Positions 42,558 through 59,621 of a stretch of 64,000 bases of DNA are shown in pieces. Source of the DNA: Burkholderiales bacterium (lineage in GTDB: Bacteria; Pseudomonadota; Gammaproteobacteria; Burkholderiales; Burkholderiaceae_C); the NCBI GenBank assembly GCA_038326025.1, contig JBBQJP010000021.1:5440-69439 (forward strand), written 5' to 3'. Every line of letters begins with the position of its first letter. Positions within the stretch are counted from its first letter, which is position 1. The notes beneath the pieces are model-generated. The model was not told the origin of the DNA. It saw only the letters and a program-made list of their open reading frames with translations, and did no database searches. Made by a program: the position numbers and the translations under genes.

Positions 42558-45500
42558 ATGAATGAAAGCGAGTGTATGGCCGCGGCTACCAAGGACTGTC
42601 CCCGGTGTTCCGTCGCCAATCCGGCGCAAATGCGTTTCTGCGGAAGTTGTGGTGCCGCGCTGACGCAGCAATGCGCACAGTGCGGCTTCAGCAATCCGGC
42701 GGGGTTCCGGTTCTGCGGCGGCTGTGCAGCGTCGCTGACCGGCATGGCGCCTGACGCTGCGTTAGCGCGCGCTGAAGGCGCCCCGCCGCCGTCCGGCATC
42801 GGACACGACGCGGAGCGCCGGCAGCTGACCGTCCTCTTTGTCGACCTGATCGACTCGGTCCGCCTGTCCGAGTCGCTGCTGGCCGAGGACCTGCGCGACC
42901 TGTTGCTCGCCTACCAGGGCGCGGTGGTCAAGGCCATCGAAGAGGGCGGCGGGCATGTCGCGCAGTACCTCGGCGACGGCATCCTGGCCTACTTTGGCTA
43001 CCCGGTGGCACACGAGGACGACGCCATCCAGGCGGTGCGCGCCGCGCTGCGCTGCGTCTCGGGCATGGGCAGGCTGCGTGAAGCCGGACAGGTGGCCGAC
43101 GCGATCCACATCCGCGTGGGCGTGCACACCGGCGTCGGCGTGATCGGGGAGATCGGCGCCGGAAGCCACCAGGAACGCCTGGCCATCGGCACGGCGCCGA
43201 ACATCGCGGCGCGCATCCAGTCGCTGGCCGGCACCGACGAAGTTATGGTCAGCGCGGCCACGCGCGTGCTGGCCGCCGAGATGTTCGAGTATGGGCCCGA
43301 GCAGGAGGTCACGCTCAAGGGCATTGCCAAGCCGGTGCAGGTCAGCCGGGTGCTGACTGCGAAGGACACCCAGCATCTGATCGCGCAGAACAAGAAACTG
43401 GGCGTGCGGCCGCTCATGGGAAGGGCGCAGCAACTGGCGGTGCTGCAACAGCAGTTCGATGCCGCCGCGCGCCAGCGCGGCAGCACGGTGCTTGTCAGCG
43501 GCGAGGCCGGCATCGGCAAATCGCGCCTGATCTACGCCTTTGCGTCCGGGCTGTCCAGCGATGCGCTGCAGCTCAGCGCGCGCTGCGCGCCGCATGAGCA
43601 GAATAGCCCCTTGTTGCCGCTGGTGGAGCTATTCGGGCAGATGTTCGGCATCACCTCGCAGAAGCTGGACGCGTTCGACGAGAGGCGCATTCGCCAGCTG
43701 CTGCAGCACTCGGAAGACCCGGACGCCTTTGCGCTGCTGATCGACTTCCTGTCGCTCAAGACCAGCGGCACGGTTCCCGATGCGGCGTTGTCATCGGCCA
43801 GACGCCGCGACCGCACCCTGAAGCTGCTGCGCGAGTTACTGCTGGGCGAGGCGGCTAAGCGACCGGTGGTGCTGTTCGTCGAGGACATGCACTGGATCGA
43901 TCCCTCGACGCTTGAGTTCATCGATACGCTGCTCGAAGCCGGCGCCCAGGTCGGGCTGATGCTGGTCTTCACGGCGCGGCCCGCCTTCGAAAGCCCCTGG
44001 GGCTATCGGCCCTACCTTATGAAGCTGGAGCTGGAGCGGCTGGGGGCGGCGGAAGCCGAGGCCCTGATGCGCTCGGTCACCGGCGACAAGCAGCTGCCCG
44101 ACATCGTGCTCAAGGACCTGCTGGCCCGGGCCGACGGCGTGCCGCTATACCTGGAGGAGATGACGAAGGCGGTCATCGAGTCCGGCCTGCTGCGCACCAA
44201 TGCGGGAAACTACGAGCTCAACCTGCCCTCGACGCTGCGCGACTCGCTGGCCGCGCGGCTGGACCATCTGGGCACCGCCAAGGGTGTCGCCCAGCTGGCG
44301 GCGGTGATCGGACGCAGCTTCGCCTACCGCGTGTTGGCGGCCATCTCGCCGGACGACATCCTGGTCTTGCGGCGCCACATCGACCATCTGGTGCGCGTCG
44401 AGCTGGTCCACCTGGACCCGTCGGTCGGCCTGGAAACCTATGTGTTCCGGCATGCGCTGATCCGCGATGCGGCCTACGACTCGCTGCTGCGCAAGGAGCG
44501 CGAGGAATTGCATGGCCGCGTCGCCACCGCGCTCAAGGCCATCGTCGCCGTCGAATGCGAGCAGCGGCCGGAAATCCTGGCCTGGCACTTGGAGCGCGCA
44601 GGACAACTCGACGCAGCCGTGACCAGCTGGACCGAAGCCGGCCAGAAGGCCATGGCACGCGCCGCGCACCGAGAGTCCATCGCCCACCTGAGCCATGCCA
44701 TCGAACTGCTCGAGCGCCGGCCGGACTCCGCCGTGCGCAAGCAAACCGAGCTCGGCCTGCAGCTCACGCTGGGCGGCAACTACATCGCCACGCAGGGCTG
44801 GTCGTCGCCGGGCGTCATGGGCGCCTTCAGCCGGGCCCGCGACATCTGCAACACGTTGGGCCACGGGCGTGAGGTGTTTCCGGCGCTGTGGGGGCTCTGG
44901 TCCTACCACCTCGTTACCGGCAACTTCCGTGAAGGCAAGGAGGTCGCGGCGCAATTGCAGGCCATCGCGGAACCCACCGGCGACCCGAGCCTGCTGGTTC
45001 CGCTGGGCCACGCGCGCGGCTACAACCTGATGTTCAGCGGCGAGTACCGCGCCGCGCTCGACCTGACGCGCGCCGGCAGCGCACTGTTCGACCTGGAGCT
45101 CGAACGCGCACTGGTCGGCGGCTACCAGCAGTCGTCGACGTCGGCGATGTGCAATATCGCGTCGATCTCGCTGTGGGCACTCGGATTTCCGGACCAGGCG
45201 CGGCAGATGGCGGCGCGCCAGTCCGAGATCAGCGACATGGTCCGCAACCGGGCCTGCGACGCAGTGGACATGGCCGGGCTGCAATGGGGCGTGGCGTCCT
45301 TGATCCGCGACACCGCATGGGTCAGGCAGTGCGAGGAAAAAGGGCTGGCGATCTCCGCCGAGATCGAGAACGTCTTCTGGCCGGCGCTGCTGCGTTTCTA
45401 TGGTAGCTGGGCCCGGGTCATGGACGGCGACAAACACGCGCTGGTCGACATGGAGGAGTGCCTGCAGATCTGGCGCGGCGGCGGCGCCGGGGTGCTGACC

Positions 45501-45914
45501 ACGATGTTCTATGCCTTGTACCTCGATGCCTGCCTGGCGGCGGGCGAGTTCCGCAAGGGCCTGGATTTCGCGCCCGGCAGCTTCGCCTATGTGGAGAGTT
45601 CGGGTGAACACTATTTCGAGACCGAGCTCCACCGCCTGACCGGCGAGCTGCTGGTGGCCCGCCCGGCGGACCGTGCCGACCCCGCCCTCCTCGAAAACGC
45701 GCTCGGCCATGTGGAGCGGGCCATCGAACTGGCGCGCGCAACAGGTGCCCGCTCGTTCGAGCTGCGGGCCGCCATCAGCCGGCTGCGCATCAGCCAGGGC
45801 GGCGCCCGGCAGGCGCAGGCGCAGGACGCCCTGGCCGAGCTCTACCGCGGCTTCACCGAGGGCTTCGACACGCTGGACCTGCGGGACGCCAAGGCCTTGC
45901 TCGGGTCCGACTGA
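42558..45914 (+). CDS. double zinc-ribbon / class III adenylate-guanylate cyclase / AAA(STAND) ATPase / TPR multidomain protein
   Basis: ORF 42390..45914. ATG at 42558 is favoured. CPRCS...CGSCG and CAQCG...CGGC ribbons. Cyclase core RRQLTVLFVDLIDS...GDGILAYFGYP...RVGVHTGVGVIGEIG. Walker A GEAGIGKSRL. Long helical repeat C-terminus. Confidence 0.85.
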   Translation: MNESECMAAATKDCPRCSVANPAQMRFCGSCGAALTQQCAQCGFSNPAGFRFCGGCAASLTGMAPDAALARAEGAPPPSGIGHDAERRQLTVLFVDLIDSVRLSESLLAEDLRDLLLAYQGAVVKAIEEGGGHVAQYLGDGILAYFGYPVAHEDDAIQAVRAALRCVSGMGRLREAGQVADAIHIRVGVHTGVGVIGEIGAGSHQERLAIGTAPNIAARIQSLAGTDEVMVSAATRVLAAEMFEYGPEQEVTLKGIAKPVQVSRVLTAKDTQHLIAQNKKLGVRPLMGRAQQLAVLQQQFDAAARQRGSTVLVSGEAGIGKSRLIYAFASGLSSDALQLSARCAPHEQNSPLLPLVELFGQMFGITSQKLDAFDERRIRQLLQHSEDPDAFALLIDFLSLKTSGTVPDAALSSARRRDRTLKLLRELLLGEAAKRPVVLFVEDMHWIDPSTLEFIDTLLEAGAQVGLMLVFTARPAFESPWGYRPYLMKLELERLGAAEAEALMRSVTGDKQLPDIVLKDLLARADGVPLYLEEMTKAVIESGLLRTNAGNYELNLPSTLRDSLAARLDHLGTAKGVAQLAAVIGRSFAYRVLAAISPDDILVLRRHIDHLVRVELVHLDPSVGLETYVFRHALIRDAAYDSLLRKEREELHGRVATALKAIVAVECEQRPEILAWHLERAGQLDAAVTSWTEAGQKAMARAAHRESIAHLSHAIELLERRPDSAVRKQTELGLQLTLGGNYIATQGWSSPGVMGAFSRARDICNTLGHGREVFPALWGLWSYHLVTGNFREGKEVAAQLQAIAEPTGDPSLLVPLGHARGYNLMFSGEYRAALDLTRAGSALFDLELERALVGGYQQSSTSAMCNIASISLWALGFPDQARQMAARQSEISDMVRNRACDAVDMAGLQWGVASLIRDTAWVRQCEEKGLAISAEIENVFWPALLRFYGSWARVMDGDKHALVDMEECLQIWRGGGAGVLTTMFYALYLDACLAAGEFRKGLDFAPGSFAYVESSGEHYFETELHRLTGELLVARPADRADPALLENALGHVERAIELARATGARSFELRAAISRLRISQGGARQAQAQDALAELYRGFTEGFDTLDLRDAKALLGSD

Positions 45915-45968
45915 ATCCGCCGCAGGTGCGGCCGGGGGGCGCCGGGCACAGGCCGGTGCGCGACAGGT

Positions 45969-46793
45969 TCAGCGCTCGAAGATCGGAGCATGCGGCATGC
46001 CCAGGATCCACGGCGCATTCAACTCGTAGGATCCCAGCACCGAGTCCGCGATGCCGGGCGCCCGGCCGTCGGCCGGAAGGGTTGTGGCGCCCAGGCCGGG
46101 CAGGAATTCGGCCTCGATGCGCACCGAGGTACGCAGCGGGCGCAGCGTGGCCTGGCGCCAGTCCTTGTTGAACTGCGACAACACGAAGATCGGTCCCAGT
46201 GCGGCAGGCATCTGCGACACCACGCTCTGCGCCAGCATCTCGCGCACCGGGTCGAAATGCGGGAACGCCGCCAGGGGCTGCGGCTCGCCCTCGGCCTCCC
46301 AGTCCAGCGCAATCTGGGGTGCGCCGTTCTCGGCATCGATGGCGTAGCGACCTTCACTCAACTTGAACCGCGCCAGCTTCTTGGCGTAGCCCCAGAACAT
46401 CATGCCACCCAGTGTGGCCAGCACACTGTCCAGGAACAGCCTGGGCATGTAGTAGTAAGGCCCCTGGGCCTGGCTGTCGGAGCGCCCCAGCAGCGCACCC
46501 ATGGCCCGGCCCAGTGCCCCCGGGCGCAGCATCGTGAACGGGACGCCCACCGTGAACTCCTGGTAGGTCAGGGTAGGCAATAGCGTCGGCACCGACATCA
46601 CGGCACGGAACATGGAGTTGAATGACAGGATCACCGGGTGCGTGCCCGGCGGGGTGACGCTCTGCGGGCCCAGTTCCAGCCCGGCGGGCAGCAGGCGCAG
46701 CACCTGCGCGGCGGGCATGGCCACGGTCACGCCACGCAAGGTGCCGGTGCCATACAGGTTGACCAGGTTGAACGGGTTGTTTGGGCTGCTCAT
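45969..46793 (-). CDS. hypothetical protein, acetoacetate-decarboxylase-like fold (tentative)
   Basis: Only the last 274 codons of ORF 45969..47573 are used. ATG at 46793 forms an ATGA overlap with the stop of the upstream gene. YYMPRLFLDSVLATLGGMMFWGYAKKLARFKL resembles the ADC-family core motif. Confidence 0.5.
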   Translation of the reverse strand: MSSPNNPFNLVNLYGTGTLRGVTVAMPAAQVLRLLPAGLELGPQSVTPPGTHPVILSFNSMFRAVMSVPTLLPTLTYQEFTVGVPFTMLRPGALGRAMGALLGRSDSQAQGPYYYMPRLFLDSVLATLGGMMFWGYAKKLARFKLSEGRYAIDAENGAPQIALDWEAEGEPQPLAAFPHFDPVREMLAQSVVSQMPAALGPIFVLSQFNKDWRQATLRPLRTSVRIEAEFLPGLGATTLPADGRAPGIADSVLGSYELNAPWILGMPHAPIFER

Positions 46794-49700
46794 GGTGTTT
46801 CCTTCCGGATGCGATCGGTCTCGGGTTTGATGTCGTCGAGGCGCCTGCCGTAATACCAGTCCGCGTCCCAGCTCCCGATGGCGATGAGCAGGCGCTCGCG
46901 CTCCGATCCGACGGCATCGCGTCGGATGCAGAAGTCGGGCTTTTGCCAGGCCCGCGACAGGGTGTCGAACAGATCCTGACGCTGGGCCTCGCACAGTTTG
47001 CGGGCCATCGCCACCGCCTCGCGCAGCGGCTCGGCAGCGGCCAGCACCTGCTGCAAGCCCGCCGGGCCGGCGCGCCTGGCATCGCCCGGCATGAGCCCCT
47101 TCAGCGGGTCCTTGAACAGGCCATCGAGCTTGGTCGCCAGGCCCCAGGCCTGCTGATCGAGGTAGTTGCGGCTGGCGTGCTCTGCTTCCAGAGCCAGCTC
47201 CTGGATGCTTTGCAGCGACACCAGCAACTGCGTCGTGGCCGCGAGCAGCCCGGCTTCGTCGGGCCCCTTGCCGCGACCGACGGCGGGATGCTCCGGCGCG
47301 TCCGGCAGCAGCCAGGGCGCCAGCGTGTCGAAGTGGTCCTCCATCGCCATGCAGGCCCGGGCGAACCTTTCCTGGCGCGCGATCATCAGGTCCGCGGACG
47401 CGCAGAGCCTTTCGGGAAAACCCTGTCGCGCCACCTGCTGCGCAATGAATGCGCGGTACATCGCCGCTTCGGCGTCGAGCCTGCCCGGTCCGCCGCGCGG
47501 CAGTCTGGCGGCGGCGTCCATCAAGGCGCGTTGCGCCTGGCGCCAGCGCGCCGTGGTGTCGGCATTGCCCCACTCGCGCGAGAGCATCGCGTCGATCACG
47601 ATCTGCGGGTCTATCTTCTCGATCGCGAGCCTAGCCGCTGCGACATCGATGGCGCTCGACCCGTTTTCCTTGTTGTTGATGCGTGCATTGGACATCAGCG
47701 CACCCATGCGGCAAGGGTCCGTGCGGTCCTGCTGGCGTTCCGCTTCCGGGTTCACCTCCAGCCGGGGACCGTCCTGTGCGCTACCCAACCGGCCCTTGAA
47801 GGCCACCGAAGGATCCAGCGTCCATCGCGGCGAACCGGTGCGCGTCATCAGTTGCTCGGCCAGCGACTCGACCATCGTTCCGCGCACATTGAACGGCCGT
47901 ATCGCCTGGGCGCTGTACAGGACACCGGCGCCATCGTTGTCCAGGCAGGTGGCCACCAAGCCCAGCGTCTCGACGATGGACAGGTTGGGGAAATCGTAGA
48001 TGCGCACCGCCAGCGTCTCCTCGATCTCGCAGACGTCGACCACCTCCTGCAGGTGGCGCGATACCCGCACCAGGGACTGGAAGCAGGCCTTGTCGGGGTC
48101 GGCGGCGTCGCGGAACTGCTTGAGCGAGTACATCGCCAGCGGAGCCTGGTTGCCCAGCAGTTCGAGCGCGAGCGCGCGCGCCACTTTGGCCCGTTGCGGA
48201 AACCGGGCTTTCGCGCTCTTCTTGGTGCCCTGCTCCAAGCGCAGGGCCTGCGCCCAGGCGTACGCCTTGTCCTGGGCCGCCAAATGGCCCAGGCCGGCGT
48301 TGTCCTCGTTTTGCACGATCTCGACCAGGGGTTGCACCAGGGCCTGCTGCCCGGCCTCCAACGCGGTCCACACTTCGGCGTCCATGCGCAGCAGGCTCTG
48401 GCGCGGCTTGTCCACGTCGACCCCGTCGGACAGCCAGGCGCTTGCCGGCTGGACAAAATTGGCGGTGCGCGCGCCCAGACCCTGGCCTTCGAACCGCGAT
48501 ATGGCGGCAATGTTTTCGTCGACGAAGAAATAGGCCGGCACCACGCCCACGCCTTCGGTCACCCATTCGCCGGCCGGCCCTTCGCGCTCCCAGCACACCG
48601 GAACCAGAAAGTTCAGCTCGAACCTGGCCCAGTCGCCGACATTGTTGGTCGCCGACGTGACCTCCTTGTAACTGGTGGCGGCCAGGTAGACGTAGGCATA
48701 TTGACCACCGATCGACTTGGCGCCGTCGGGCAGGAGCTGACCCTCCTCCTCCCGAACGGACTTGCCGACCGGCATTTCCGGGCGCGCCCACACCCGCAAC
48801 CGCAGCTTGTGGCATCCGTCGTCGCGATCGAGCACCGAATCCTGCAAGGCGCTGTTGATCGACTTGTCCAGGAACGCCTGCAGCTTGTCCTTCATGGCCA
48901 GCAGTGGCAGCACGCGCAGGGTGGTCCCGCTGAAGCGGAACGGCCCGGTGATGGATTCGATGGCCGACGACAGTGCAGGGTAGAACCGTGGCGCTGACGG
49001 CTCCGGTGGCGAAGTTGCTGCCGTTGCCGATGTTGCCGGCGGCACCGCGTCGGGCGGCATGGGCACGCCGCCGCCATCGCGCCAGCCGCCCTCCTGGCCG
49101 CGCCATGCCAGGTTCAGGCTGGGCTGCATGCTCACGTTCACGTCCATCCAGAACGGCAGCACCGGCTTGATCTCGGCCACCTCCACGTCACCGTCGTTCC
49201 AGCGCCGTTGCACCTCCAGCCCCAGGGTGCGGGCGATCGGCAGTGTCGAATACGCATGCAACTGGATCGTATGTCCCCCGCTGAGGTCACCCAACAGCGT
49301 GCGGTCCTCGCCCAGCAATCCGCCGCCGTTGAAGGCGTGCGTGACCATCGGGCCATTGGTCAGGGCCTGGTAACTCAGCTCCTCGGGCTTGTCGGCGCGG
49401 CGAAACTGCTTGAGATTGAGCGAGTTCGTGACCATGCCCGGCCCGCCCGGCGCCAGCGCGGGCGCCATGCGGGCCAGCATCTCCGGCAACATGGCCGGCA
49501 TCTGGCCGCCCGGCACCTGCGGAAAGATGCGCAGCGCCTGCGCCAGCCACATCGCGTCGCGGCCAAAACCGCCGAGTGCGTCGGCGACCTGCGAGGCGAT
49601 AGTCCACGGCGCGATGGGGCTGCGCGTGTCGAACGGCACGCGCAGCCCGGACATCGGTGCCTCGCGCCGGACCTCCATGAACACCCGTGACTCCAGTCGC

Positions 49701-50227
49701 CGACCGGCGTAGGCGGCCGGGAAGACATCGGTCTCGACCCGGGCCAGCGTGACCGGCGCCAGCGGGTCGCGCACCCAGTCGCTATCGACCGCGGTGACCT
49801 TGCACAAGACCTTGGGGAAGCCCGACACCGTGCGCCCCAGCGGCACCGAGTAGTTGTCGTTGACATAGATGAACGGCGTAATGGTGGCCCAGTCGTGGAA
49901 CACCCAGCGCCCGTTGACCTTGCGGTACCACTCCAGCGAGACGGCGAAGAAGACCTCCGTCTGCGCAAACCAGCCCAGGCCGCGCGCCTCGGCCACCTGG
50001 CCGTAGTCCAGCACCGACAGGAACACGTACGGCACGGAGGCCCGGAAGCGCCCCACCGACTCCGGCACGAAGTTCATGTAGCTGTTGCACAGGCGCTGCA
50101 AGGCATCCAGATTGGCGCGCAGCGGAAACACGCGCGACGACAAGCCATTGAAGACAAACGGCGGCTTGAACGGCAGCGGGTTGTTGCTGAGCGTGGGCAG
50201 TTGGCGGCTGAACTCTTCGGGCGTCAT
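46790..50227 (-). CDS. 1145-aa hypothetical protein with two acetoacetate-decarboxylase-like modules and a helical C-terminal region
   Basis: ORF 46790..50398. ATG at 50227 (MTPEEFSRQLPTLSNNPLPF), 26 nt downstream of the upstream gene's stop. Module 1 has RVFPLRANLDALQRLCNSYMN...FIYVNDNYSVPLGRTVSGFPK. Module 2 has LRVLPLLAMKDKLQAFLDKSIN...AYFFVDENIAAISRFEGQGLG. Confidence 0.6.
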   Translation of the reverse strand: MTPEEFSRQLPTLSNNPLPFKPPFVFNGLSSRVFPLRANLDALQRLCNSYMNFVPESVGRFRASVPYVFLSVLDYGQVAEARGLGWFAQTEVFFAVSLEWYRKVNGRWVFHDWATITPFIYVNDNYSVPLGRTVSGFPKVLCKVTAVDSDWVRDPLAPVTLARVETDVFPAAYAGRRLESRVFMEVRREAPMSGLRVPFDTRSPIAPWTIASQVADALGGFGRDAMWLAQALRIFPQVPGGQMPAMLPEMLARMAPALAPGGPGMVTNSLNLKQFRRADKPEELSYQALTNGPMVTHAFNGGGLLGEDRTLLGDLSGGHTIQLHAYSTLPIARTLGLEVQRRWNDGDVEVAEIKPVLPFWMDVNVSMQPSLNLAWRGQEGGWRDGGGVPMPPDAVPPATSATAATSPPEPSAPRFYPALSSAIESITGPFRFSGTTLRVLPLLAMKDKLQAFLDKSINSALQDSVLDRDDGCHKLRLRVWARPEMPVGKSVREEEGQLLPDGAKSIGGQYAYVYLAATSYKEVTSATNNVGDWARFELNFLVPVCWEREGPAGEWVTEGVGVVPAYFFVDENIAAISRFEGQGLGARTANFVQPASAWLSDGVDVDKPRQSLLRMDAEVWTALEAGQQALVQPLVEIVQNEDNAGLGHLAAQDKAYAWAQALRLEQGTKKSAKARFPQRAKVARALALELLGNQAPLAMYSLKQFRDAADPDKACFQSLVRVSRHLQEVVDVCEIEETLAVRIYDFPNLSIVETLGLVATCLDNDGAGVLYSAQAIRPFNVRGTMVESLAEQLMTRTGSPRWTLDPSVAFKGRLGSAQDGPRLEVNPEAERQQDRTDPCRMGALMSNARINNKENGSSAIDVAAARLAIEKIDPQIVIDAMLSREWGNADTTARWRQAQRALMDAAARLPRGGPGRLDAEAAMYRAFIAQQVARQGFPERLCASADLMIARQERFARACMAMEDHFDTLAPWLLPDAPEHPAVGRGKGPDEAGLLAATTQLLVSLQSIQELALEAEHASRNYLDQQAWGLATKLDGLFKDPLKGLMPGDARRAGPAGLQQVLAAAEPLREAVAMARKLCEAQRQDLFDTLSRAWQKPDFCIRRDAVGSERERLLIAIGSWDADWYYGRRLDDIKPETDRIRKETP

Positions 50228-50253
50228 GGCGGATCCTTGGTCTTCGGTGAGGC

Positions 50254-51300
50254 CTAGCTGCGTTCGATGGCCCAGACCGGCAGCGCTTCGATGAAGCGCT
50301 TGTCGGGTGAGTCGGGCAAATGGCGGTAGATCTGCGTGAACTCGTGGTGTGCCGCACCGGCCAGGCCATGCGCGACCTGGCGCGCGTAGTCGCAGCAACC
50401 ATAGCTGTTCATGCGCTCGCGCACCCAGCGCTGGTCGTCGTCGCTGCGATCGACACGCGTTTGACCCAGGAAGTCTTCTAGCCGGGCACGCTCGTCGGGT
50501 GCAGCCTGTTCGAACAAGCGGATCAGCATCAGCGTGCGCTTGCCCTCGCGGATGTCACCGCCCAACTCCTTGCCGTAGGCCTTTGCGTCGCCCTCCAGGT
50601 TGAGCAGGTCGTCCTGGATCTGGAACGCCGCACCCAGGAAGAAGCCAAAGCGGATCACGCGGTCGATATCGGCACCAGCGACACCGCCGATCAGCGAGCC
50701 GATCCGGCTCGGATGGATGGTGGCCAGCCAGCAGGTTTTCTTGAGCACCATCAACAGGTAGTCGGCTTCGGTCACGTCGCTGACGTTGTCGCGTCGCCAG
50801 CCCAGTTCCAGCGCCTGGCCCTCGGCCGATTCACGCGCCATGCGCTCGGTTTCCTCCAGAATCTGCAGCGCCAGACTGGAGCCCAGCACATGGCGGTTGT
50901 CGAGCAGGGGTTTCATCGACACCAGCGACAGCATGTCGCCGACATTGAGCGCGATCGGCAGCCCTTCGCGCACATGCAACGCCGGCTGGCCGCGGCGCTG
51001 CTCGCTCTCGTCCTCGATGTCGTCGTGGATCAGCATGGCGTTGTGCATCAACTCGATCGACACCGCGGTGCGGACCGCGGCCTCGGTGCTGGCGCCGTGC
51101 GCGCGCGCGGTGGCGATGCACAGGCTGGGGCGAAAACCCCGGCCACCGCGCCGCGGGTAGTCGGGCAGCAGGTCGTAGAGGTAGCGGCTCGGTTCACCGG
51201 TGGGCAGATAACGGAACAACAGCTCGCGCGTGATCGCCGAGTATTCCTTCAGGATCGACACCACGAGCTTTTCGTCGCGGGAGTCGGCGGCGGCTGGCAT
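50254..51300 (-). CDS. polyprenyl diphosphate synthase (GGPP-synthase-like)
   Basis: 348 aa. First Asp-rich motif LIHDDIEDESEQRRG and second FQIQDDLLNLEGD. Confidence 0.9.
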   Translation of the reverse strand: MPAAADSRDEKLVVSILKEYSAITRELLFRYLPTGEPSRYLYDLLPDYPRRGGRGFRPSLCIATARAHGASTEAAVRTAVSIELMHNAMLIHDDIEDESEQRRGQPALHVREGLPIALNVGDMLSLVSMKPLLDNRHVLGSSLALQILEETERMARESAEGQALELGWRRDNVSDVTEADYLLMVLKKTCWLATIHPSRIGSLIGGVAGADIDRVIRFGFFLGAAFQIQDDLLNLEGDAKAYGKELGGDIREGKRTLMLIRLFEQAAPDERARLEDFLGQTRVDRSDDDQRWVRERMNSYGCCDYARQVAHGLAGAAHHEFTQIYRHLPDSPDKRFIEALPVWAIERS

Positions 51301-51314
51301 GGGCGGGCCTCCAG

Positions 51315-52253
51315 TCAGGCAGCCGCCGTGCCGATGGCGTCACCAGCGCAGTCCTGCGCGATGCGCACCGACAGGCTGCCCCATTCCTGGCCCTGTCCGT
51401 CGACCAGCGCGGCCACATGGCGACCGGGAGCGGATTGTTCGCACAGGGCCAGTCGCACATGCACATGGCCTGGCTCGCTGTACACGACCACATCGCCGGG
51501 ACCGGCGGCGCCGGCTCCCTCGCACGACCATTTGGCGTGCAGCGCAGCAAGGTCGGCACCCGGCTCCAGCGACACCGCCATCTCGGCCGGCTGACGTGCA
51601 ACGCATTCGACCGTGATCTTGGCACGCGGACCCGTCGCGCTGGCGGGCGCTGCAGGCGACGCTGCAGATGGGGCTGCAGACGTCGCCGCAGATGCCGCTT
51701 CGGTGGCACCGGCCGGCGCGCCCGGCGCGGATGGCCAGCCGGCGGCCTGTCCCGCCATCGGGGCCATCGGGGCCAGGCTATCGGCCCAGGCGCGCAACAA
51801 CAGCACCCACGGCACGGCCATCGACGACGCGGCCTGTCCCAGCGGACCCGCCAGGTTCTGCGCCCACGCGCCGGCCGCGTCGGCGGCAAATCCGGGGTTG
51901 GCATATCCGGGGCCGGCAGATCCGAAGCCAGGCGGCGAAAAACGCTGCGCCGCTTCCTGGCCACGGCGCATGTACTCGTCGATCACCTGATAGGCGGTGT
52001 TGACGCCGCGCTCGACAAAACCCTGCATCGTGGCCTCGGCCGCGCCGCTCATGGCGCGACTGGTATCCAGGCTCTGGCGTACCGCAGCGCCCATACCCGA
52101 CCCCAGCGCCGCGCCGAGCGCTCCGTTCAAGGCCGCGCCCATCGAGGGTGGCAGGCCCAGCGGCGGGCGCCGCTCCGGCGCCTGCCGATGCGGTGCGGGA
52201 CGCCGGACGCGGGTACTGTCGTCGGCTTCGGTTTCAGCTTCATTCATCGGCAA
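51315..52253 (-). CDS. hypothetical protein (Ala/Gly/Pro-rich middle, small C-terminal beta-type domain)
   Basis: 312-aa ORF filling the gap between flanking operon genes on the same strand. No family recognised. Confidence 0.45.
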   Translation of the reverse strand: MPMNEAETEADDSTRVRRPAPHRQAPERRPPLGLPPSMGAALNGALGAALGSGMGAAVRQSLDTSRAMSGAAEATMQGFVERGVNTAYQVIDEYMRRGQEAAQRFSPPGFGSAGPGYANPGFAADAAGAWAQNLAGPLGQAASSMAVPWVLLLRAWADSLAPMAPMAGQAAGWPSAPGAPAGATEAASAATSAAPSAASPAAPASATGPRAKITVECVARQPAEMAVSLEPGADLAALHAKWSCEGAGAAGPGDVVVYSEPGHVHVRLALCEQSAPGRHVAALVDGQGQEWGSLSVRIAQDCAGDAIGTAAA

Positions 52254-52315
52254 TCCTCTGATGGGCCATGTGAAATGGAATCGTGTCGTACGCGGTCAAT
52301 GGACGGCCCTGCGTA

Positions 52316-54484
52316 TCATGGATGGTCGTAGCCCACGATGTCTTCGAGCGCCGGCAGGCGCGAGATCGCGTGTGCCGCCAGGCGCCCCGAGATCACTGCC
52401 GACTCGATGCAGCCGGTGTCCAGGCCGGTGGCGGTCCAGTCGCCGGCGATGGTCAGGTTGTCGAACGACATGTCCAGCGGTGACAGGCGGTAGGCCGGGC
52501 TGCCGGGAAGCGACAGCACATAGCGGTCGCTGGCATTGACATTGGCCGTCCAGTACTGGCTGTCGAAGGCGCGTTCGTCGGCCGCGGTGCGGCCGGCGTC
52601 GACGCTTGCGTCGGCCGCCACCAGCAGCTCCCACCGAAAACCGCCGTGCGCATGCCGGGCCTGGGGCCAGAGTGCGCTGACATCGCGGTCCAGAAAATGC
52701 ACCGCATTGGCCCGCACCTGCTGGTGCTGCTGCTGGTGGAACTGGCGGCCATCGGTACCGGCCCGGTCCACATCCGGCAGGACACTGCAGAAATAGGCAA
52801 TCGACTTCACCGGTTCGGCCAGGCATTCCTCGGGGATCAGGTGGCGCATGTCGGCCCAGGTGTCGAAGGGCTCGACGAAGCCCGACAGGTTGACCGCCGG
52901 ATGCGGCCAGCCCAGCGTGACCATGTCCTCGCGCATCCATACCTGAAAGGCCTGGGTCGGCACAGTCTTCACATAACTGACCATGTCGCGCCAGCGCGGC
53001 TCGCGCGCGATCAGTTCGCCGGCCACCTGCGGCAGTGCGCCGACGCTGACGCCCAGCACGACCAGGTCGAAATCGCGCGCCACGTCCATGCGCACGCTGC
53101 GCACCCGGCGCAGGTCCCAGTCGGCCTCGAAGGCTCGGCCCTCGGCGCGCAGCGCGTCGCCGTCCTGCAGTTGCGCATAGTCGGGCTGCGACGGCCAGCA
53201 TGACACGCCCTGCACATCGACCAGGGGCTGATAGGGCCGTCCGTCCAGCACCTCGGCCTGCAGGTCGAAATGCATGGACTGCACGTGCGGCACCACGCCC
53301 GCACGGGCGGGCGACACCGACAGGTCGCGCAGGCGATGGAAAAAGGAAAACTTGACGCCGCGCGCGCGCAGCACCTGGTACAGCGGCGCGAACACCACGT
53401 CGCCCATGCCCGCGCTCATGCTGTAGAACAGTGCGCCGCGGTAAGTGAAGAACATGCGCATCGCGCCGCGCAGCGCCACGCCCGCAGCCAGCCGCGGGCG
53501 CTCGACGTCGCCATCCTCGAAGGCGAATGCCAGGTCGTAGATGCCGCGCATGAAGCCCGACTGCAAGGAGGCCTCGGACGCGCCATTGGCGCGCAGCCAG
53601 TCGCGCCAGTCATGCGCGTTGATCGCGTCGAAGCCGCGCGGATCGAAGGCCAGCCCCTGCAACGTGGCGCCGCGCAGGATGGCCAGGATCAGGTCGATCA
53701 CCTGCCAAATGCGGCGCAGCTCCACATCCTCGGCAACCAGCATCTCGATGCGCTGGCGCGCAGCGCCTGCCAGCGACTCGATCACTTGCAACAGCGCCGC
53801 GCTGCCCTCACGCAGCATCTGCGGCACCCAGGCATCGACGGCCTGCAGCAGCATTTCACTGGCCTGGGCAATCGCGGCCGCGCCGGACAGGTGGCCATAA
53901 CGCAGCACGGTCTCGACGGCCGCACCGGCCGCCTGCGGTCCGCTGCGCGTCCCCGTCCCGTCAGGTGGCGCAGGCGCGGGTTGCGGCCGCTCCCGTGCGC
54001 CGGCCGAACGCACCAATTCGGTCACCAGCAGCGCCGACTGCTTCAGATAGGCCACTACCGTGAACGGGCTGCCCTGGCTGGCGGGATCGCCCGGCTCGCC
54101 AGCTCCCGGTGGAAAATGCGCGCGCCAGAAGCTCCAGTCATCGCCCATGCGATCGGCCACCGCCACATCGGCCGCCGGCTTGAACGCGTCGCGCCAGTCC
54201 TGGAAGCGCTGCTCCGGGTGCAGCGCCTGCCGCTCGGCATAACAGGCGCGCATCAGCGCAAATGCGTTCTCGTAGAAACCCATCCACAGGTGCAGGCCGT
54301 GTTCCTCGATGCGCTGCGATGCGCCCCGCCCCGAGGCGCCCTTGCCGCCGAGCCGCCAGCCCAGCTGGTAGACCGTGATGTCATAGCGCCCGCCGTGCTC
54401 GGGGCGGCTCAGTTCGAAGGCGGTGGTCAGGCTCGCGCATCCGCCACCGACCACCGCGACCCGAATCGGCTCGTCGCCGCTCAT
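52316..54484 (-). CDS. FAD-dependent oxidoreductase, phytoene-desaturase/amine-oxidase superfamily (HpnE/COG3349-like, enlarged)
   Basis: 722 aa. N-terminal RVAVVGGGCASLTTAFELS dinucleotide fold and C-terminal LTIAGDWTATGLDTGCIESAVISGRLAA. 4-bp overlap with ispH. Confidence 0.8.
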   Translation of the reverse strand: MSGDEPIRVAVVGGGCASLTTAFELSRPEHGGRYDITVYQLGWRLGGKGASGRGASQRIEEHGLHLWMGFYENAFALMRACYAERQALHPEQRFQDWRDAFKPAADVAVADRMGDDWSFWRAHFPPGAGEPGDPASQGSPFTVVAYLKQSALLVTELVRSAGARERPQPAPAPPDGTGTRSGPQAAGAAVETVLRYGHLSGAAAIAQASEMLLQAVDAWVPQMLREGSAALLQVIESLAGAARQRIEMLVAEDVELRRIWQVIDLILAILRGATLQGLAFDPRGFDAINAHDWRDWLRANGASEASLQSGFMRGIYDLAFAFEDGDVERPRLAAGVALRGAMRMFFTYRGALFYSMSAGMGDVVFAPLYQVLRARGVKFSFFHRLRDLSVSPARAGVVPHVQSMHFDLQAEVLDGRPYQPLVDVQGVSCWPSQPDYAQLQDGDALRAEGRAFEADWDLRRVRSVRMDVARDFDLVVLGVSVGALPQVAGELIAREPRWRDMVSYVKTVPTQAFQVWMREDMVTLGWPHPAVNLSGFVEPFDTWADMRHLIPEECLAEPVKSIAYFCSVLPDVDRAGTDGRQFHQQQHQQVRANAVHFLDRDVSALWPQARHAHGGFRWELLVAADASVDAGRTAADERAFDSQYWTANVNASDRYVLSLPGSPAYRLSPLDMSFDNLTIAGDWTATGLDTGCIESAVISGRLAAHAISRLPALEDIVGYDHP

Positions 54485-55494
54485 CCACGCCCCCCGACCT
54501 GCCGGCCATCGTTGATGGCTGAGCCCGGGGTTGCCAGCGTGTCAGGGGCCGGCTGACCGTCTTGGCGAAGTGGGCGGGGCAGGTTGAACACGATTTGTTC
54601 GGCCTTGCCGAAATTCTCGACATCGCTGCCCGGCCACCAGTCGCACAACTGGTCGACGACTCCCTCGACCAGCGTCTCGGGCACCGATGCGCCCGATGTC
54701 AGGCCGACCACATCGCAGCCTTCGAGCCAGTCGCGCTGCAGGTCGGCGGCCGACGCGACCCGATGCGCCGGCCGCCCGCATTGTCCGACGAGTTCGAGCA
54801 GGCGCATGGTGTTGGAACTATGCGCCGCACCCACCACCAGCACCACCTGCGAACGCCCGGCCAGTTCGCGTGCGGCAATCTGGCGGTTTTGAGTGGCGTA
54901 ACAGATGTCGTCCTGCCGGGGCCCCAGGATGGCCGGGAAGCGGCGCTGGAGCACGCTCAGGATGCGCGCGGTGTCGTCCACCGACAAGGTGGTCTGCGTC
55001 GCATAGGCCAGCTTGTCGGGGTTGCGCACGGTCACAGTCAGCGCCTCCTGCTCGGTGGAGATCAGGTGGATCTGCGCATCGCCCTGCCCCGTGAAATGGC
55101 CCAGCGTTCCGTCGATTTCGGCGTGGCCGGCGTGGCCGACCAGGATCACGCTGCGACCGGCCCGGCCATGGCGCGCGACTTCCTGGTGCACCTTGGTCAC
55201 CAGCGGACAGGTGGCATCGATCGCGCGCAGCCCGAGCAAACGGGCCTGCTCCGTCACGTCGCGCGACACGCCGTGCGCGCTGAAGATGACCCGGGCGTTG
55301 GCGGGCACATCTGCCAGTTCCTCGACAAACCGCGCGCCGCGCGCGCGCAGCCGGTCGACGACGTGGCGGTTGTGCACGATCTCGTGGCGCACGTAGACCG
55401 GCTGGCCAAACGCATCGAGGGCACGCTCGACAATCTGAACCGCGCGTTCGACGCCGGCGCAAAACCCGCGTGGATTGGCGATCACGATGTGCAT
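54481..55494 (-). CDS. ispH: 4-hydroxy-3-methylbut-2-enyl diphosphate reductase
   Basis: ORF 54481..55554. ATG at 55494 (MHIVIANPRGFCAGVERAVQIVERAL...VRHEIVHN...DATCPLVTKVH). Confidence 0.9.
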   Translation of the reverse strand: MHIVIANPRGFCAGVERAVQIVERALDAFGQPVYVRHEIVHNRHVVDRLRARGARFVEELADVPANARVIFSAHGVSRDVTEQARLLGLRAIDATCPLVTKVHQEVARHGRAGRSVILVGHAGHAEIDGTLGHFTGQGDAQIHLISTEQEALTVTVRNPDKLAYATQTTLSVDDTARILSVLQRRFPAILGPRQDDICYATQNRQIAARELAGRSQVVLVVGAAHSSNTMRLLELVGQCGRPAHRVASAADLQRDWLEGCDVVGLTSGASVPETLVEGVVDQLCDWWPGSDVENFGKAEQIVFNLPRPLRQDGQPAPDTLATPGSAINDGRQVGGRG

Positions 55495-56048
55495 GAAAGA
55501 ATCACCTCCCGACTTCGCTGTCATCTGCATGCAAGCAGCGCAGGCCACCGGCATGACTGGCGCGGCAAGCGAACGCCGGCGCGACCGGATCCTACGATCA
55601 ACTCTAACACGCGGTCAACGAATTCAGGGGGAGCAAAGCACCAACGCATGCGCCGCAAGATCGCTGCATCGTCGGAATCGCCATCGCCATCGCCGTCGCT
55701 GGCCGTACGCAATGGATCGATCGGCCATCCGAACCAGGACTTGTCTGCATCGCCATCTGCAGCAACAGACAACCATGGCATCCGGATCAGGATGCCCGTT
55801 CGCGGGTTACCGCCAGGCACGGGCCGGCGCCACGGCCACCGCGATCTTGGGACCGGTGTCGCGCCACAACCGCCGCATCCCTGGCAGCCCGGAATGCTTC
55901 TTGTCAAAGGTCGCGAGCGGCCCAGGTCGAGAACGATAAGCTGTTGCCGCCCTATCCCACGGCATACCAGACGCTCTGGGCCTGGTCGGGAACTTGCGTG
56001 CGATGGCATCGGTGAGCAGCTTGAGGTGCACCGGGTCCTGCGCAGCAT

Positions 56049-56163
56049 CTACCACCTGGCGACACCAGGGCTGGCGGCATTGGCCAAGCGGGCGTCGATC
56101 TACAAGGACGAGAAGTTCTCCGACCACGCGCCGCTGACGATCGCATATGACGTAAAGCTTTGA
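56049..56163 (+). repeat. xthA 3'-terminal 115-bp repeat, copy 3 (orphan gene end)
   Basis: Encodes YHLATPGLAALAKRASIYKDEKFSDHAPLTIAYDVKL-stop. Same boundaries as the other copies. Confidence 0.9.
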
Positions 56164-57639: not shown

Positions 57640-57807
57640 TCAGCCGCCTGCAAGCTTGTGGCGTCGGCAGGCATCGGAGCAGTACTTCAGCTCGGCCCAG
57701 TTCTTCGCCCAGCGCCGACGCCAGCTCATCGCAAGGCCGCAGCCCACGCAGGGCTTGCTCGGCAATGCGGCCTTGTTGCCGCGGAAACTGGCGCCAGACA
57801 GCGTCAC
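57640..57807 (-). CDS. DUF2256 small zinc-ribbon-like protein
   Basis: Tail of ORF 57640..58206. Probable GTG start at 57807. KPCVGCGLAMSWRRRWAKNWAELKYCSDACRR matches the family pattern C-x2-C...W-R-K/R-x-W...YCS-x2-CR. Confidence 0.55.
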   Translation of the reverse strand: MTLSGASFRGNKAALPSKPCVGCGLAMSWRRRWAKNWAELKYCSDACRRHKLAGG

Positions 57808-57833
57808 AACGCAGCCTGGGCCCAGCCGCGTGT

Positions 57834-58142
57834 TCACGCCTTCTTGGCCCAGGCACTGCACCAGCCCGCACCGGCCACCTGCTTGCCAGCGAACAGCGGA
57901 CAGCCGCCCGCCTTGTCGGTGGTCTTTCCCTGATAGAGAGCGCAATTTGTGCAGTTCTGGGCAGCGGTGTGTTTCGGGTACTTCTTGGTGTCGGCACGTT
58001 TGGTATCGGCGACATAACCGAGGGCGGCGGCCTGCGCGTCGGTTTCGACGACTAGGGCCTGGGCCTGCGCGCCGGTGGCAAGCGCCGCGCCGGAGGCGGC
58101 CAATGTCATGAGAAACACGCGACGGGGTAGAGGTCGTTTCAT
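57834..58142 (-). CDS. high-potential iron-sulfur protein (HiPIP), Tat-exported
   Basis: 102 aa. Tat signal RRVFLMTLAASGAALATGAQA. Cys ligand pattern CTNCALYQG...GGCPLFAGKQVAGAGWCSAW. AAGGAG RBS. Confidence 0.85.
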   Translation of the reverse strand: MKRPLPRRVFLMTLAASGAALATGAQAQALVVETDAQAAALGYVADTKRADTKKYPKHTAAQNCTNCALYQGKTTDKAGGCPLFAGKQVAGAGWCSAWAKKA

Positions 58143-58442
58143 GGGGAACTCCTTGGATGGGTGATATGAAAGGGTGATGCGTGACGTGGAAAGAGGAGCC
58201 GAACAAGTGTCAAGAGCGGGTCACGCGACCAGGCGCCGGGTGGCGCGGCAGCAGCGGCGCACGCGCATTTGCACCAACTGCAAAGCCGGCACGGCCCGCA
58301 AGATGATCGTCCGATTTCAGATTTTTGCTGGATGCCATGTGAAGGATGATACATTTTTTTGAGTCATCTTGAGTTCAATTGTATTATTTTTGCAGAGTAA
58401 GTTTTATAATACGCTTCAAATACTCTTCAAATCAGTGTCAAT

Positions 58443-59621
58443 ATGAAGAACAGCAAGCCATCGCTGCCACCAACCCGACAACCGACGGAAGTGGAGAATC
58501 CATCGTTCCTGCGCAGCGGCGCTGTTGCGCGCATGCTGCGCATGCCAGTGGCGACGCTGCGCGTCTGGGAGCGCCGCTACAGGCTGACACAGCCCGGGCT
58601 GTCGCCGAGCGGTCAGCGTCTCTACTCTGCCGACGACGTTCGGAGGCTGGTACTGCTCAAGCAGCTGACGGACCTCGGTCACGCGATAGGGAGCCTGGCG
58701 CCACTGGACATGCCGCAGCTGCAGCGCGTGGCGTCCACGCACGCGCAAGCGCGCTCAGCCACACAAAGAGTCGAGCACCCGGAGGTGGCCCAGGTGCCAC
58801 CGATTCGCGCCTGGCGGCTCGCCGTCATTGGCGCGGCGCTGGGCAGCAGGTTGCGGCGGCCGGCGCTGTTGCGCCGGCTTGGTCAGCCGGTCGTGCTGCT
58901 TGGGCCGTTCGAAGACGCAACGCAGGCCGCCGCCGCATTGCAAAGCACGGACCTGGATGCCTTGCTCGTCCACGAACCGCAGCTGCACGACGGCTGGTTG
59001 GCTTCCATCGAAGCTGCGGCGCCGGCCTTTGTGGGGGTTCCGAAAGCGGTGCTCTACGGCTTTGCTGCCGACCCCGTGTGCGACGCATTGGCAGCAGGGG
59101 GCACAGCCTTGCTGCGCGAACCGCAGCCGGATGTGGTTGTGGCGCAATGGCTGCAAAGCCTGTCCTTGGCGACCATGGCGTCGCGGCCCGCGGCGGGCAA
59201 GCCGGCGCCTTCGACCGGGCCCGTGCCGCCGCGCCGCTGGGACGATGCGGCTCTGGCCGACTTCGCGGGCCTTTCGACGACGATAGCCTGCGAGTGTCCA
59301 CGCCACGTGGCCGAGCTGCTCGTGCAGCTGTCGCACTTCGAGGCCTACAGCGCCGAGTGTGGGCACCGCAACGCAGCCGACGCCGAGCTGCACGCCTACT
59401 TGCGGCAAGTCACGGCCGCTTCGCGCGCCCGCTTCGAGGCGGCACTGGAGCATGTGGCCCTGCACGAAGGCCTGTTGTTGCCTGCATCGCCGAGGCAGAA
59501 AGACACGGCTATGGCACCAAACGCGCAGCGCGCCAAGGTCCTGGCTGCCGCGAGGCCGCGCCGTCCGCCCAGAGCCGAGGCAGAAAAAGCGCCGGATGCT
59601 GATATCGATGGCAGCCTGTGA
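58443..59621 (+). CDS. MerR-family transcriptional regulator with large C-terminal sensor region (LitR/CarH-like layout, tentative)
   Basis: 392 aa. N-terminal HTH LRSGAVARMLRMPVATLRVWERRYRL...YSADDVRRLVLLKQL. Flavodoxin-like middle domain. Cys/His-containing C-terminal helix bundle (TTIACECPRHVAELL). Confidence 0.75.
   Translation: MKNSKPSLPPTRQPTEVENPSFLRSGAVARMLRMPVATLRVWERRYRLTQPGLSPSGQRLYSADDVRRLVLLKQLTDLGHAIGSLAPLDMPQLQRVASTHAQARSATQRVEHPEVAQVPPIRAWRLAVIGAALGSRLRRPALLRRLGQPVVLLGPFEDATQAAAALQSTDLDALLVHEPQLHDGWLASIEAAAPAFVGVPKAVLYGFAADPVCDALAAGGTALLREPQPDVVVAQWLQSLSLATMASRPAAGKPAPSTGPVPPRRWDDAALADFAGLSTTIACECPRHVAELLVQLSHFEAYSAECGHRNAADAELHAYLRQVTAASRARFEAALEHVALHEGLLLPASPRQKDTAMAPNAQRAKVLAAARPRRPPRAEAEKAPDADIDGSL

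Follow-up and report, generated by a model that had tools for sequence, protein, structure and literature searches.

What does a bacterial operon make if it encodes the supply and elongation of isoprenoid units, a desaturase-like flavoenzyme, and two proteins related to acetoacetate decarboxylase (ADC)? The question is raised by a 64,000-nucleotide stretch of DNA from a Burkholderiales bacterium (assembly GCA_038326025.1, contig JBBQJP010000021.1, positions 5,440–69,439), referred to below as the window. The open reading frame (ORF) listing of the window contains six co-directional genes on the minus strand between positions 45969 and 55494; all coordinates given here are those of the window. 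The components of the cluster come from known superfamilies: IspH, trans-isoprenyl diphosphate synthases (trans-IPPS), phytoene desaturase/amine oxidase flavoenzymes, ADC, and, in a neighboring gene, cyclase-STAND proteins. The architecture of the tandem ADC protein, its family, and the combination of genes have no described counterpart in the searched literature or in PADLOC. The cluster is of an isoprenoid biosynthetic type, and there is a realistic chance that it holds new enzymology. With confidence a little above even, we interpret it as an unrecognized, horizontally transferred, prenyl-dependent pathway in which an enzyme with the ADC fold forms the core and the product is an isoprenoid-derived lipid or metabolite. 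The genes of the operon and its candidate promoter are positioned as follows.

55589–55618, minus strand: candidate sigma-70-like promoter (TTGACC, 18 nt, TAGGAT), about 95 nt upstream of ispH
54481–55494, minus strand: ispH, 337 aa (the ORF itself extends to 55554)
52316–54484, minus strand: flavoenzyme, 722 aa
51315–52253, minus strand: 312-aa protein, TTG start
50254–51300, minus strand: polyprenyl synthase, 348 aa
46790–50227, minus strand: giant double-ADC protein, 1145 aa
45969–46793, minus strand: small ADC protein, 274 aa

The original prediction, made from the letters of the window, had described six tightly packed minus-strand genes, and the ORF lists and a check of the junctions agree with it in the gene sizes, two ATGA overlaps, and a 26-nt gap. 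The start/stop overlaps join ispH to the flavoenzyme gene and the giant gene to that of the small ADC protein. The gap of 26 nt lies between the prenyl synthase and giant genes, whereas 14 nt separate the genes of the 312-aa protein and the prenyl synthase, and 62 nt those of the flavoenzyme and the 312-aa protein. All six starts are preceded by a purine-rich run resembling a ribosome-binding site. The close spacing together with the ATGA overlaps is consistent with the products being co-translated partners. The start of the giant gene is an ATG giving the N-terminus MTxEEF, which is kept among homologues, and the TTG start of the 312-aa protein is backed by a similarly kept MPMN N-terminus. 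The start of ispH is an ATG preceded at 9 nt by GGGAGG. The promoter candidate is weak: it matches the consensus at nine of twelve positions, and two such sites occur in 12.8 kb, where 1.2 are expected. No transmembrane segments are predicted in any of the six proteins.

Two of the products tie the operon to isoprenoid supply. The 337-aa protein is identified as authentic IspH, the reductase of 4-hydroxy-3-methylbut-2-enyl diphosphate (HMBPP), by NCBIfam models NF002188 (422.6 bits, cut-off 420) and TIGR00216 (302.9 bits, cut-off 187.85) and by a Pfam LYTB match at 1.7e-89. The motifs GFCAGV, ATCPLV, and DICYAT are all present, and their cysteines are taken by us to be the 4Fe-4S ligands known from E. 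coli IspH. The 348-aa protein is classified as a bona fide trans-prenyl diphosphate synthase (Pfam polyprenyl_synt, 185.4 bits, cut-off 27, 1.4e-54). Its closest solved relative is the geranylgeranyl diphosphate (GGPP) synthase of Thermus thermophilus (1wmw, 2e-55), and the aspartate-rich motifs DDIED and the unusual DDLLN are common to both proteins in the alignment. The product is probably GGPP (C20), as suggested by this nearest solved relative; the cut-offs of GGPP synthase families are not reached, with scores of 167 versus 500 for NF041003 GGPP_syn and 194 versus 468 for IdsA.

The 722-aa protein had been described as an enlarged FAD-dependent desaturase-like enzyme, a description with which domain searches and the predicted fold agree. 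The Pfam domains NAD_binding_8 (residues 11–79) and Amino_oxidase (residues 634–707) mark its two ends, and a GxGxxG motif is present. An AlphaFold (AF2) model, calculated from an alignment of database homologues, has a mean confidence (pLDDT) of 71.6, and its best Foldseek match is the phytoene desaturase of rice (5mog, E 4e-9, TM(target) 0.65), followed by amine oxidases, L-amino-acid oxidases, and protoporphyrinogen oxidases. A helical insert of about 200 aa occupies residues 143–346, approximately. The scores of the protein are far below the cut-offs of the families HpnE (63.8 versus 283), ZDS (34 versus 622), and PDS (18 versus 569). The sequence and the model thus assign it to the FAD enzymes of the phytoene-desaturase/amine-oxidase superfamily.

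The giant protein of 1145 residues is predicted to be an internal tandem duplication of the ADC fold with a helical tail. Its AlphaFold model (pLDDT 81, predicted template-modelling score 0.82) contains two β modules with helical hairpins, at residues 1–380 and 425–805, approximately, and a helical C-terminal domain at about 825–1115. Each module has a hairpin insert of about 50 aa. Foldseek matched the model to ADC structures alone (3c8w, 3bgt, and 3cmb; probability 1.0, E 4e-8 to 4e-7, TM(target) 0.59–0.69), and the two modules align with each other in hhalign with a probability of 99.9 and an E-value of 4e-32. A relationship of the modules to the CrtC/AttH or tocopherol-cyclase barrels was considered and dropped on the Foldseek result. 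At the sequence level, the Pfam ADC score of 20.5 bits is under the cut-off of 29.8, and sequence and profile searches against the PDB gave nothing significant except a 42-residue motif match, which pairs GFPK139 in module 1 with GFPK122 in Sbi00515 (4zbo). In 4zbo, Lys122 is the Schiff-base lysine. Residues E91, R132, and K139 of the giant do not vary among 49 close and 43 distant relatives, with identities down to 26%. In module 2, alanine or glycine stands opposite K139 (GFPKVL versus GLGART in hhalign), whereas the fold and many other positions are kept. The alignments therefore indicate that module 1 keeps the Schiff-base lysine and that module 2 has lost it.

For the helical domain at the C-terminus of the giant, Foldseek gave no structural match; the tail of this domain, QKPDFC...W..DWYYG, is invariant. 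Homologues of the giant are numerous: a word-indexed search found more than 230 full-length proteins, and an exhaustive profile search found 1689 representatives of 50% clusters at E ≤ 1e-3, of which 522 remain at 1e-30. Most of the matches listed are 900–1350 aa long, with variable C-termini. In two distant double-ADC proteins of about 1310 aa (P0399 and P0408), a Jacalin-like lectin end replaces the helical tail, which indicates that the C-terminal domain of the family is modular. Long members scanned for gene fusions had either Jacalin-like tails or no additional Pfam domain. The two ADC-like modules that had been read from the sequence of the giant are thus present in its model, in its Foldseek matches, and in the alignment of its halves. 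Membership of the giant or small protein in a well-characterized family with a known non-isoprenoid role had been named beforehand as a refutation, and both ADC-like proteins of the operon lie outside the characterized ADC subfamilies: they have no sequence-level match in the PDB and share with those subfamilies the fold and the catalytic motif alone.

The 274-aa protein is predicted to be a distant, single-domain member of the ADC family that keeps the lysine. It exceeds the Pfam ADC cut-off of 29.8 with 31.9 bits, has no PDB sequence match, and its residues R20, E79, and K138 are invariant in 26 homologues. Its catalytic motif aligns in hhalign with E91...K139 of the giant. The label of paralogue that it had been given is overstated: a close relationship to the modules of the giant was looked for and rejected, since BLASTP gave no match and hhalign a motif alignment of 63 columns with a probability of 26%. 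The family of the small ADC protein has 117 members, and all of the neighborhoods examined belong to the same cluster type.

The 312-aa protein has no match in Pfam, NCBIfam, PADLOC, or the PDB. It is rich in alanine, glycine, and proline. Its earlier designation as low-complexity is not fully apt, since conserved elements are present: a basic motif at the N-terminus, the helix ExGVxTAYxVIDEYMxRGxEAA, the motif W..MRAW, and, at the C-terminal end, a β domain of some 90 aa.

Whether these genes belong together was assessed in 37 loci from GTDB contigs, with one genome per species, and 80 metagenome loci of a distant subfamily. The 37 GTDB loci all come from metagenome-assembled genomes (MAGs) of Rubrivivax/Burkholderiales, Acidobacteriota (Bryobacteraceae, Terracidiphilus, and Solibacter), and Gemmatimonadota. 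Neighbors were counted by tblastn with the window proteins in loci flanked on either side by 4.5 kb or more; loci in which the giant is at least 37% identical were classed as close (n = 24), and those below 37% as distant (n = 18). Genes for the prenyl synthase and the flavoenzyme are each present in 23 of the 24 close and 17 of the 18 distant loci, and those for the cyclase-STAND protein in 22 and 15, respectively. By comparison, the small ADC protein is encoded in 22 close loci and one distant locus, and the 312-aa protein in 23 and three; the 312-aa gene sits between the flavoenzyme and prenyl synthase genes in 23 of the 24 close loci. The prenyl synthase is the most conserved partner, present in 40 of the 42 well-flanked loci with identities of 71–92% in close and 49–72% in distant loci. 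The flavoenzyme is 62–83% identical across three phyla, and the identities of both enzymes in distant loci are about 41–72%. The linkage of the core persists at giant identities of 27–35%. The universal core therefore consists of the prenyl synthase, the double-ADC protein, the flavoenzyme, and the cyclase/STAND sensor, whereas the small ADC and 312-aa proteins are subfamily-specific.

The gene ispH is present in five of about 120 loci (L005, L006, L062, L065, and L096). These loci span distant subfamilies, with giant identities of 74% in L005 and L006 and 29% in L065, which points to repeated recruitment of a precursor-supply gene to the core and argues that the core consumes isoprenoid flux. 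In the operon of the window, ispH is a lineage-specific precursor-supply add-on that is translationally coupled to the flavoenzyme gene. The earlier picture of a six-gene unit therefore holds for the prenyl synthase, the flavoenzyme, and the giant, which are strongly co-conserved, and does not hold for ispH or for the subfamily-specific small ADC and 312-aa genes; it also omitted the sensor. A lack of co-conservation had been named beforehand as one of the observations that would refute the pathway, and the genes were found to be strongly linked.

The earlier observation that the cluster has no canonical scaffold-forming enzyme was borne out. No terpene synthase, squalene or phytoene synthase (SQS/PSY), cyclase, or UbiA/ABBA prenyltransferase was found among the six operon proteins with Pfam and NCBIfam, or in the Pfam-annotated neighborhoods of 13 related loci. 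Searches of the literature on ADC, prenyl, and terpenoid themes found no described pathway with a matching gene combination, and none of the six proteins has a PADLOC-DB match at E ≤ 0.01, in agreement with the earlier statement that the combination corresponds to no described pathway.

Related loci contain additional genes. In place of ispH, acidobacterial versions add a Ser/Thr kinase-TPR protein and a pentapeptide-repeat protein, have a gene for a short-chain dehydrogenase/reductase (SDR) or epimerase between the giant and small ADC genes, and often include a large outer-membrane protein with CarboxypepD_reg. Many relatives have SDR genes for carbonyl reduction embedded in their loci. In four cases (L001, L043, L045, and P0111), the cluster is adjoined by a gene whose product, about 1100 aa long, combines CarboxypepD_reg with an outer-membrane β-barrel resembling TonB receptors, and the barrel gene was once observed between the small ADC and cyclase genes. 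The barrel might carry the product out of or into the cell, or it could simply be a frequent protein of acidobacterial genomes. The locus L024 holds SDR and small ADC genes, and the Solibacter MAG from which it comes also carries a full cluster (L034).

The fourth component of the core is encoded convergently to the operon.

42558–45914, plus strand: cyclase-STAND sensor (ORF open from 42390, with translation probably starting near 42558)

According to Pfam, the sensor consists of a zinc ribbon (DZR), a class III cyclase domain (Guanylate_cyc), an AAA_16 STAND ATPase, and a TPR-like tail. Its part from the cyclase to the C-terminus matches TIGR03903 ("TOMM system kinase/cyclase fusion protein") with 500 bits, compared with a cut-off of 705. 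The cyclase domain (42780–43400) resembles CyaB (3r5g) and keeps the two metal-binding aspartates, the asparagine, and the arginine, with glutamine and leucine at the base-specifying positions. Because adenylate cyclases have lysine and aspartate or threonine there, the nucleotide product is uncertain. The DNA synteny with three Rubrivivax MAG loci (L005–L007) is limited to 42563–55518 and so takes in the sensor gene, and one locus (L048) has a shuffled kinase/AAA_16/cyclase equivalent in its place. These observations strongly suggest that the cyclase/STAND protein is a dedicated sensor of the module. Proteins with a cyclase-AAA_16-TPR layout are common regulators linked to transcription or metabolism.

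The cluster has partial counterparts among known systems. Members of the ADC superfamily, including true ADC, MppR, and the aldolase-dehydratases Sbi00515 and Swit_4259, share with the giant the β-cone fold, the motif G-R-x4-[FYW]-P-K, and the upstream glutamate. However, the known members have a single domain, are about 250 aa long, and act on small keto acids, whereas the giant has tandem modules, one of them lysine-less, with a hairpin of roughly 50 aa in each, followed by some 300 aa of C-terminal domain, and the genomic partners of its operon are an isoprenoid synthase and a flavoenzyme resembling phytoene desaturase. The crtE-crtB-crtI clusters similarly place a GGPP-synthase-type enzyme beside a flavoenzyme, and phytoene desaturase is the structurally nearest relative of the flavoenzyme described here. 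By contrast, the operon has no phytoene synthase or lycopene cyclase, and its flavoenzyme is 13% identical to phytoene desaturase and about 250 aa longer. Hopanoid and squalene clusters (hpnC-D-E, shc) resemble the operon in the embedded ispH and in a FAD enzyme to which the flavoenzyme is weakly similar (HpnE). They differ in that HpnC, HpnD, squalene-hopene cyclase, and the radical-SAM protein HpnH are missing here, and in that the prenyl synthase appears to be of C20 type instead of a farnesyl diphosphate synthase. The sensor shares its layout of class III cyclase, AAA_16, and TPR with Rv0386 of M. tuberculosis and the TIGR03903 proteins. Rv0386 is also reported to have non-canonical base-specifying residues. 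However, the N-terminal domain of the sensor is a double zinc ribbon and not a kinase or LuxR helix-turn-helix (HTH) domain, and its partner operon is of the isoprenoid/ADC and not of the TOMM type.

A pathway consistent with these genes would begin with IspH, whose homology strongly suggests that it forms isopentenyl and dimethylallyl diphosphates. The prenyl synthase would elongate these, most likely to GGPP. The chemistry of the ADC superfamily proceeds through a lysine imine or enamine on a carbonyl substrate, and the Glu/Arg/Lys set of module 1, which the small ADC protein also keeps, would enable Schiff-base catalysis of this kind, as in the ADC relatives. Since no canonical scaffold enzyme accompanies the core and the double-ADC protein is constantly found with the prenyl synthase and the flavoenzyme, it is the likely scaffold-forming enzyme. 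Lys139 might form an enamine from a small keto acid such as acetoacetate or pyruvate. The enamine could then attack the allylic diphosphate, and this decarboxylative prenylation would give a polyprenyl ketone or oxo-acid; alternatively, it could enter an aldol-type condensation with an oxidized prenyl aldehyde. The flavoenzyme would subsequently desaturate or oxidize the prenyl chain, and in this subfamily the small ADC protein could catalyze a second step on a carbonyl. The SDR/epimerase of many relatives would reduce the carbonyl, and the frequent embedding of SDR genes fits a carbonyl-bearing intermediate. The lysine-less module 2 and the variable C-terminal domain may serve in substrate delivery, oligomerization, or partner binding, and the 312-aa protein may be a scaffold or lipid-binding partner. 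Enamine prenylation in particular is speculative, and we consider it rather doubtful. The same low confidence applies to the broadest form of the proposal, in which the tandem ADC protein would found a new class of isoprenoid scaffold-forming enzymes, and polyprenyl ketone or oxo-acid lipids, gated by the cyclic-nucleotide STAND sensor, would occur widely among the Acidobacteriota, Gemmatimonadota, and Burkholderiales of soils.

The identities of the genes, their co-conservation, and the lack of a matching described system favor, overall, the isoprenoid-type pathway put forward in the original prediction, as does the likeness of the sensor to the cyclase/STAND region of a protein family tied by NCBI to natural-product (TOMM) clusters. 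Several points weigh against it. No product, substrate, or activity is on record for any member, and the carriers are MAGs and metagenome contigs. To our knowledge, lysine-enamine prenylation has no precedent, and the giant contains no aspartate-rich or other recognized diphosphate-binding motif. The C20 chain length is based on the likeness to 1wmw, with 167 bits for NF041003 where 500 are needed. The Jacalin-like tail of some distant members is no obvious trait of a lipid-biosynthetic enzyme. Two loci, L024 and L047, have the double-ADC and cyclase-STAND genes without those of the prenyl synthase or flavoenzyme within 10 kb, so that the ADC enzyme is perhaps not strictly dependent on a locally made prenyl donor. 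Such double-ADC genes would suit a different division of labor, in which the prenyl chain serves only as carrier or anchor, and the two enzymes with the ADC fold act on a non-isoprenoid substrate derived from a keto acid or amino acid, comparable to those of MppR and Sbi00515, with the flavoenzyme generating the keto acid as an amine or amino-acid oxidase. Known enzymes of the ADC superfamily act on small keto acids, and amine and L-amino-acid oxidases follow phytoene desaturase among the structural neighbors of the flavoenzyme. However, the prenyl synthase is the most conserved partner of the double-ADC protein (49–92% identity, 40 of 42 loci), ispH was recruited repeatedly, and no prenyltransferase or glycosyltransferase that uses a carrier lipid is conserved in the neighborhoods; a carrier role for the prenyl chain thus appears unlikely.

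The pairing of a GGPP-synthase-like enzyme with a flavoenzyme resembling phytoene desaturase follows the logic of crtE and crtI, and together with the weak HpnE similarity, and with the embedded ispH that is typical of hopanoid clusters, it could indicate a route resembling that of carotenoids or squalene. The giant or its helical tail would then couple two GGPP molecules head-to-head in place of CrtB or HpnCD, and the flavoenzyme would desaturate or dehydroxylate the C40 chain to a pigment. Such a coupling is very unlikely: the giant has neither an aspartate-rich motif nor the SQS/PSY fold, ADC being its sole fold match, a Schiff-base lysine plays no part in head-to-head coupling, and the helical tail has no structural match and is swapped for other domains in relatives. 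A module of signaling or conflict, in which a STAND/cyclase or kinase sensor governs enzymes for making or destroying a lipid messenger or toxin and the C-terminal domains of the giant recognize targets, would explain why the core invariably adjoins STAND, cyclase, or kinase proteins with a domain order shuffled between lineages, why the C-termini of the giant vary and include Jacalin-like lectin domains, and why the module is apparently mobile and its cyclase non-canonical at the base-specifying residues. The six proteins have no match in PADLOC, the giant has none in a plasmid collection, defense genes do not recur in the annotated neighborhoods, and cyclase-AAA_16-TPR proteins are common as regulators; a conflict function is therefore quite improbable, marginally less so than head-to-head coupling. 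The Pfam assignment of ADC, with lysine, glutamate, and arginine kept as in true decarboxylases, could also suggest that the operon breaks down acyclic isoprenoids or ketone bodies, with the ADC-like proteins acting as decarboxylases of β-keto acids. However, IspH is anabolic, as is an elongating prenyl synthase whose aspartate-rich motifs are intact, and no genes for CoA ligase, carboxylase, thiolase, or β-oxidation are conserved nearby, which makes catabolism extremely improbable. An unrecognized biosynthetic pathway with an ADC-fold enzyme at its core accordingly remains the interpretation to which we incline.

The DNA around the operon bears on the horizontal transfer of this pathway. The following features flank the module.

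39884–41269, plus strand: IS110-family transposase gene (DEDD_Tnp_IS110 and Transposase_20)
41360–41474, plus strand: left copy of a direct repeat, 90 nt after the transposase gene
56049–56163, plus strand: right copy of the direct repeat, about 550 nt upstream of ispH

The repeat is imperfect, 115 bp long with 81% ungapped identity between its copies, and brackets 14.6 kb containing the whole module; for its 42-nt core, zero chance matches are expected. Both copies correspond to the last 38 codons or so (...IYKxEKFSDHAPLTxxYDxxL*) of a gene resembling exonuclease III, and neither is joined to a complete gene of this type. The GC content of the module is 0.682, compared with 0.632 in the remaining window. 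The high identity of the prenyl synthase and the flavoenzyme across phyla also points to horizontal transfer. It is plausible that the module lies on a genomic island or is otherwise horizontally mobile. The mobile island proposed earlier is supported indirectly: the repeats, the adjacent IS110 element, the shift in GC content, and the bounded synteny speak for it, whereas an integrase was not found, neither repeat adjoins an intact target gene, and a tblastn search of a plasmid collection with the giant gave no match.

Other genes were noted in the flanks. The 1.1 kb between the left repeat and the cyclase gene (41476–42560) contains gene debris alone, including an ORF at 41764–42156 whose translation resembles, by eye, a fragment of GcvT/aminomethyltransferase. 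To the right of the right repeat, positions 58443–59621 on the plus strand encode a 392-aa MerR-family protein with an HTH domain that is weakly CarH-like and a long C-terminal part that matches nothing. Next to it, just outside the repeat, is a short DUF2256 gene (57640–58206, minus strand). Upstream of the IS110 element, a gene at 38023–39093 on the plus strand encodes a 356-aa fusion of an α/β-hydrolase with a LuxR-type (GerE) HTH domain. Farther away, a gene at 25375–27657 on the minus strand encodes a 760-aa fusion of pyridine-nucleotide-disulphide oxidoreductase and AIR-synthase-related domains, the latter resembling selenophosphate synthetase.

Terpenoid pathways are usually recognized by a terpene synthase, a cyclase, or a head-to-head synthase. 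The core described here has no such marker enzyme, and we expect that genome-mining rules keyed to them are likely to miss the cluster. The double-ADC family is large and concentrated in Acidobacteriota and other abundant, poorly cultured soil lineages. If the lysine-bearing module does act on a prenyl substrate, it would represent a new catalytic logic for isoprenoids and a new function of the ADC fold. The constant pairing of the core with a cyclase/STAND protein offers a tractable case of a metabolite pathway wired to cyclic-nucleotide signaling. The product of the pathway could be a common, so far unrecognized lipid, pigment, or signal of soil bacteria.

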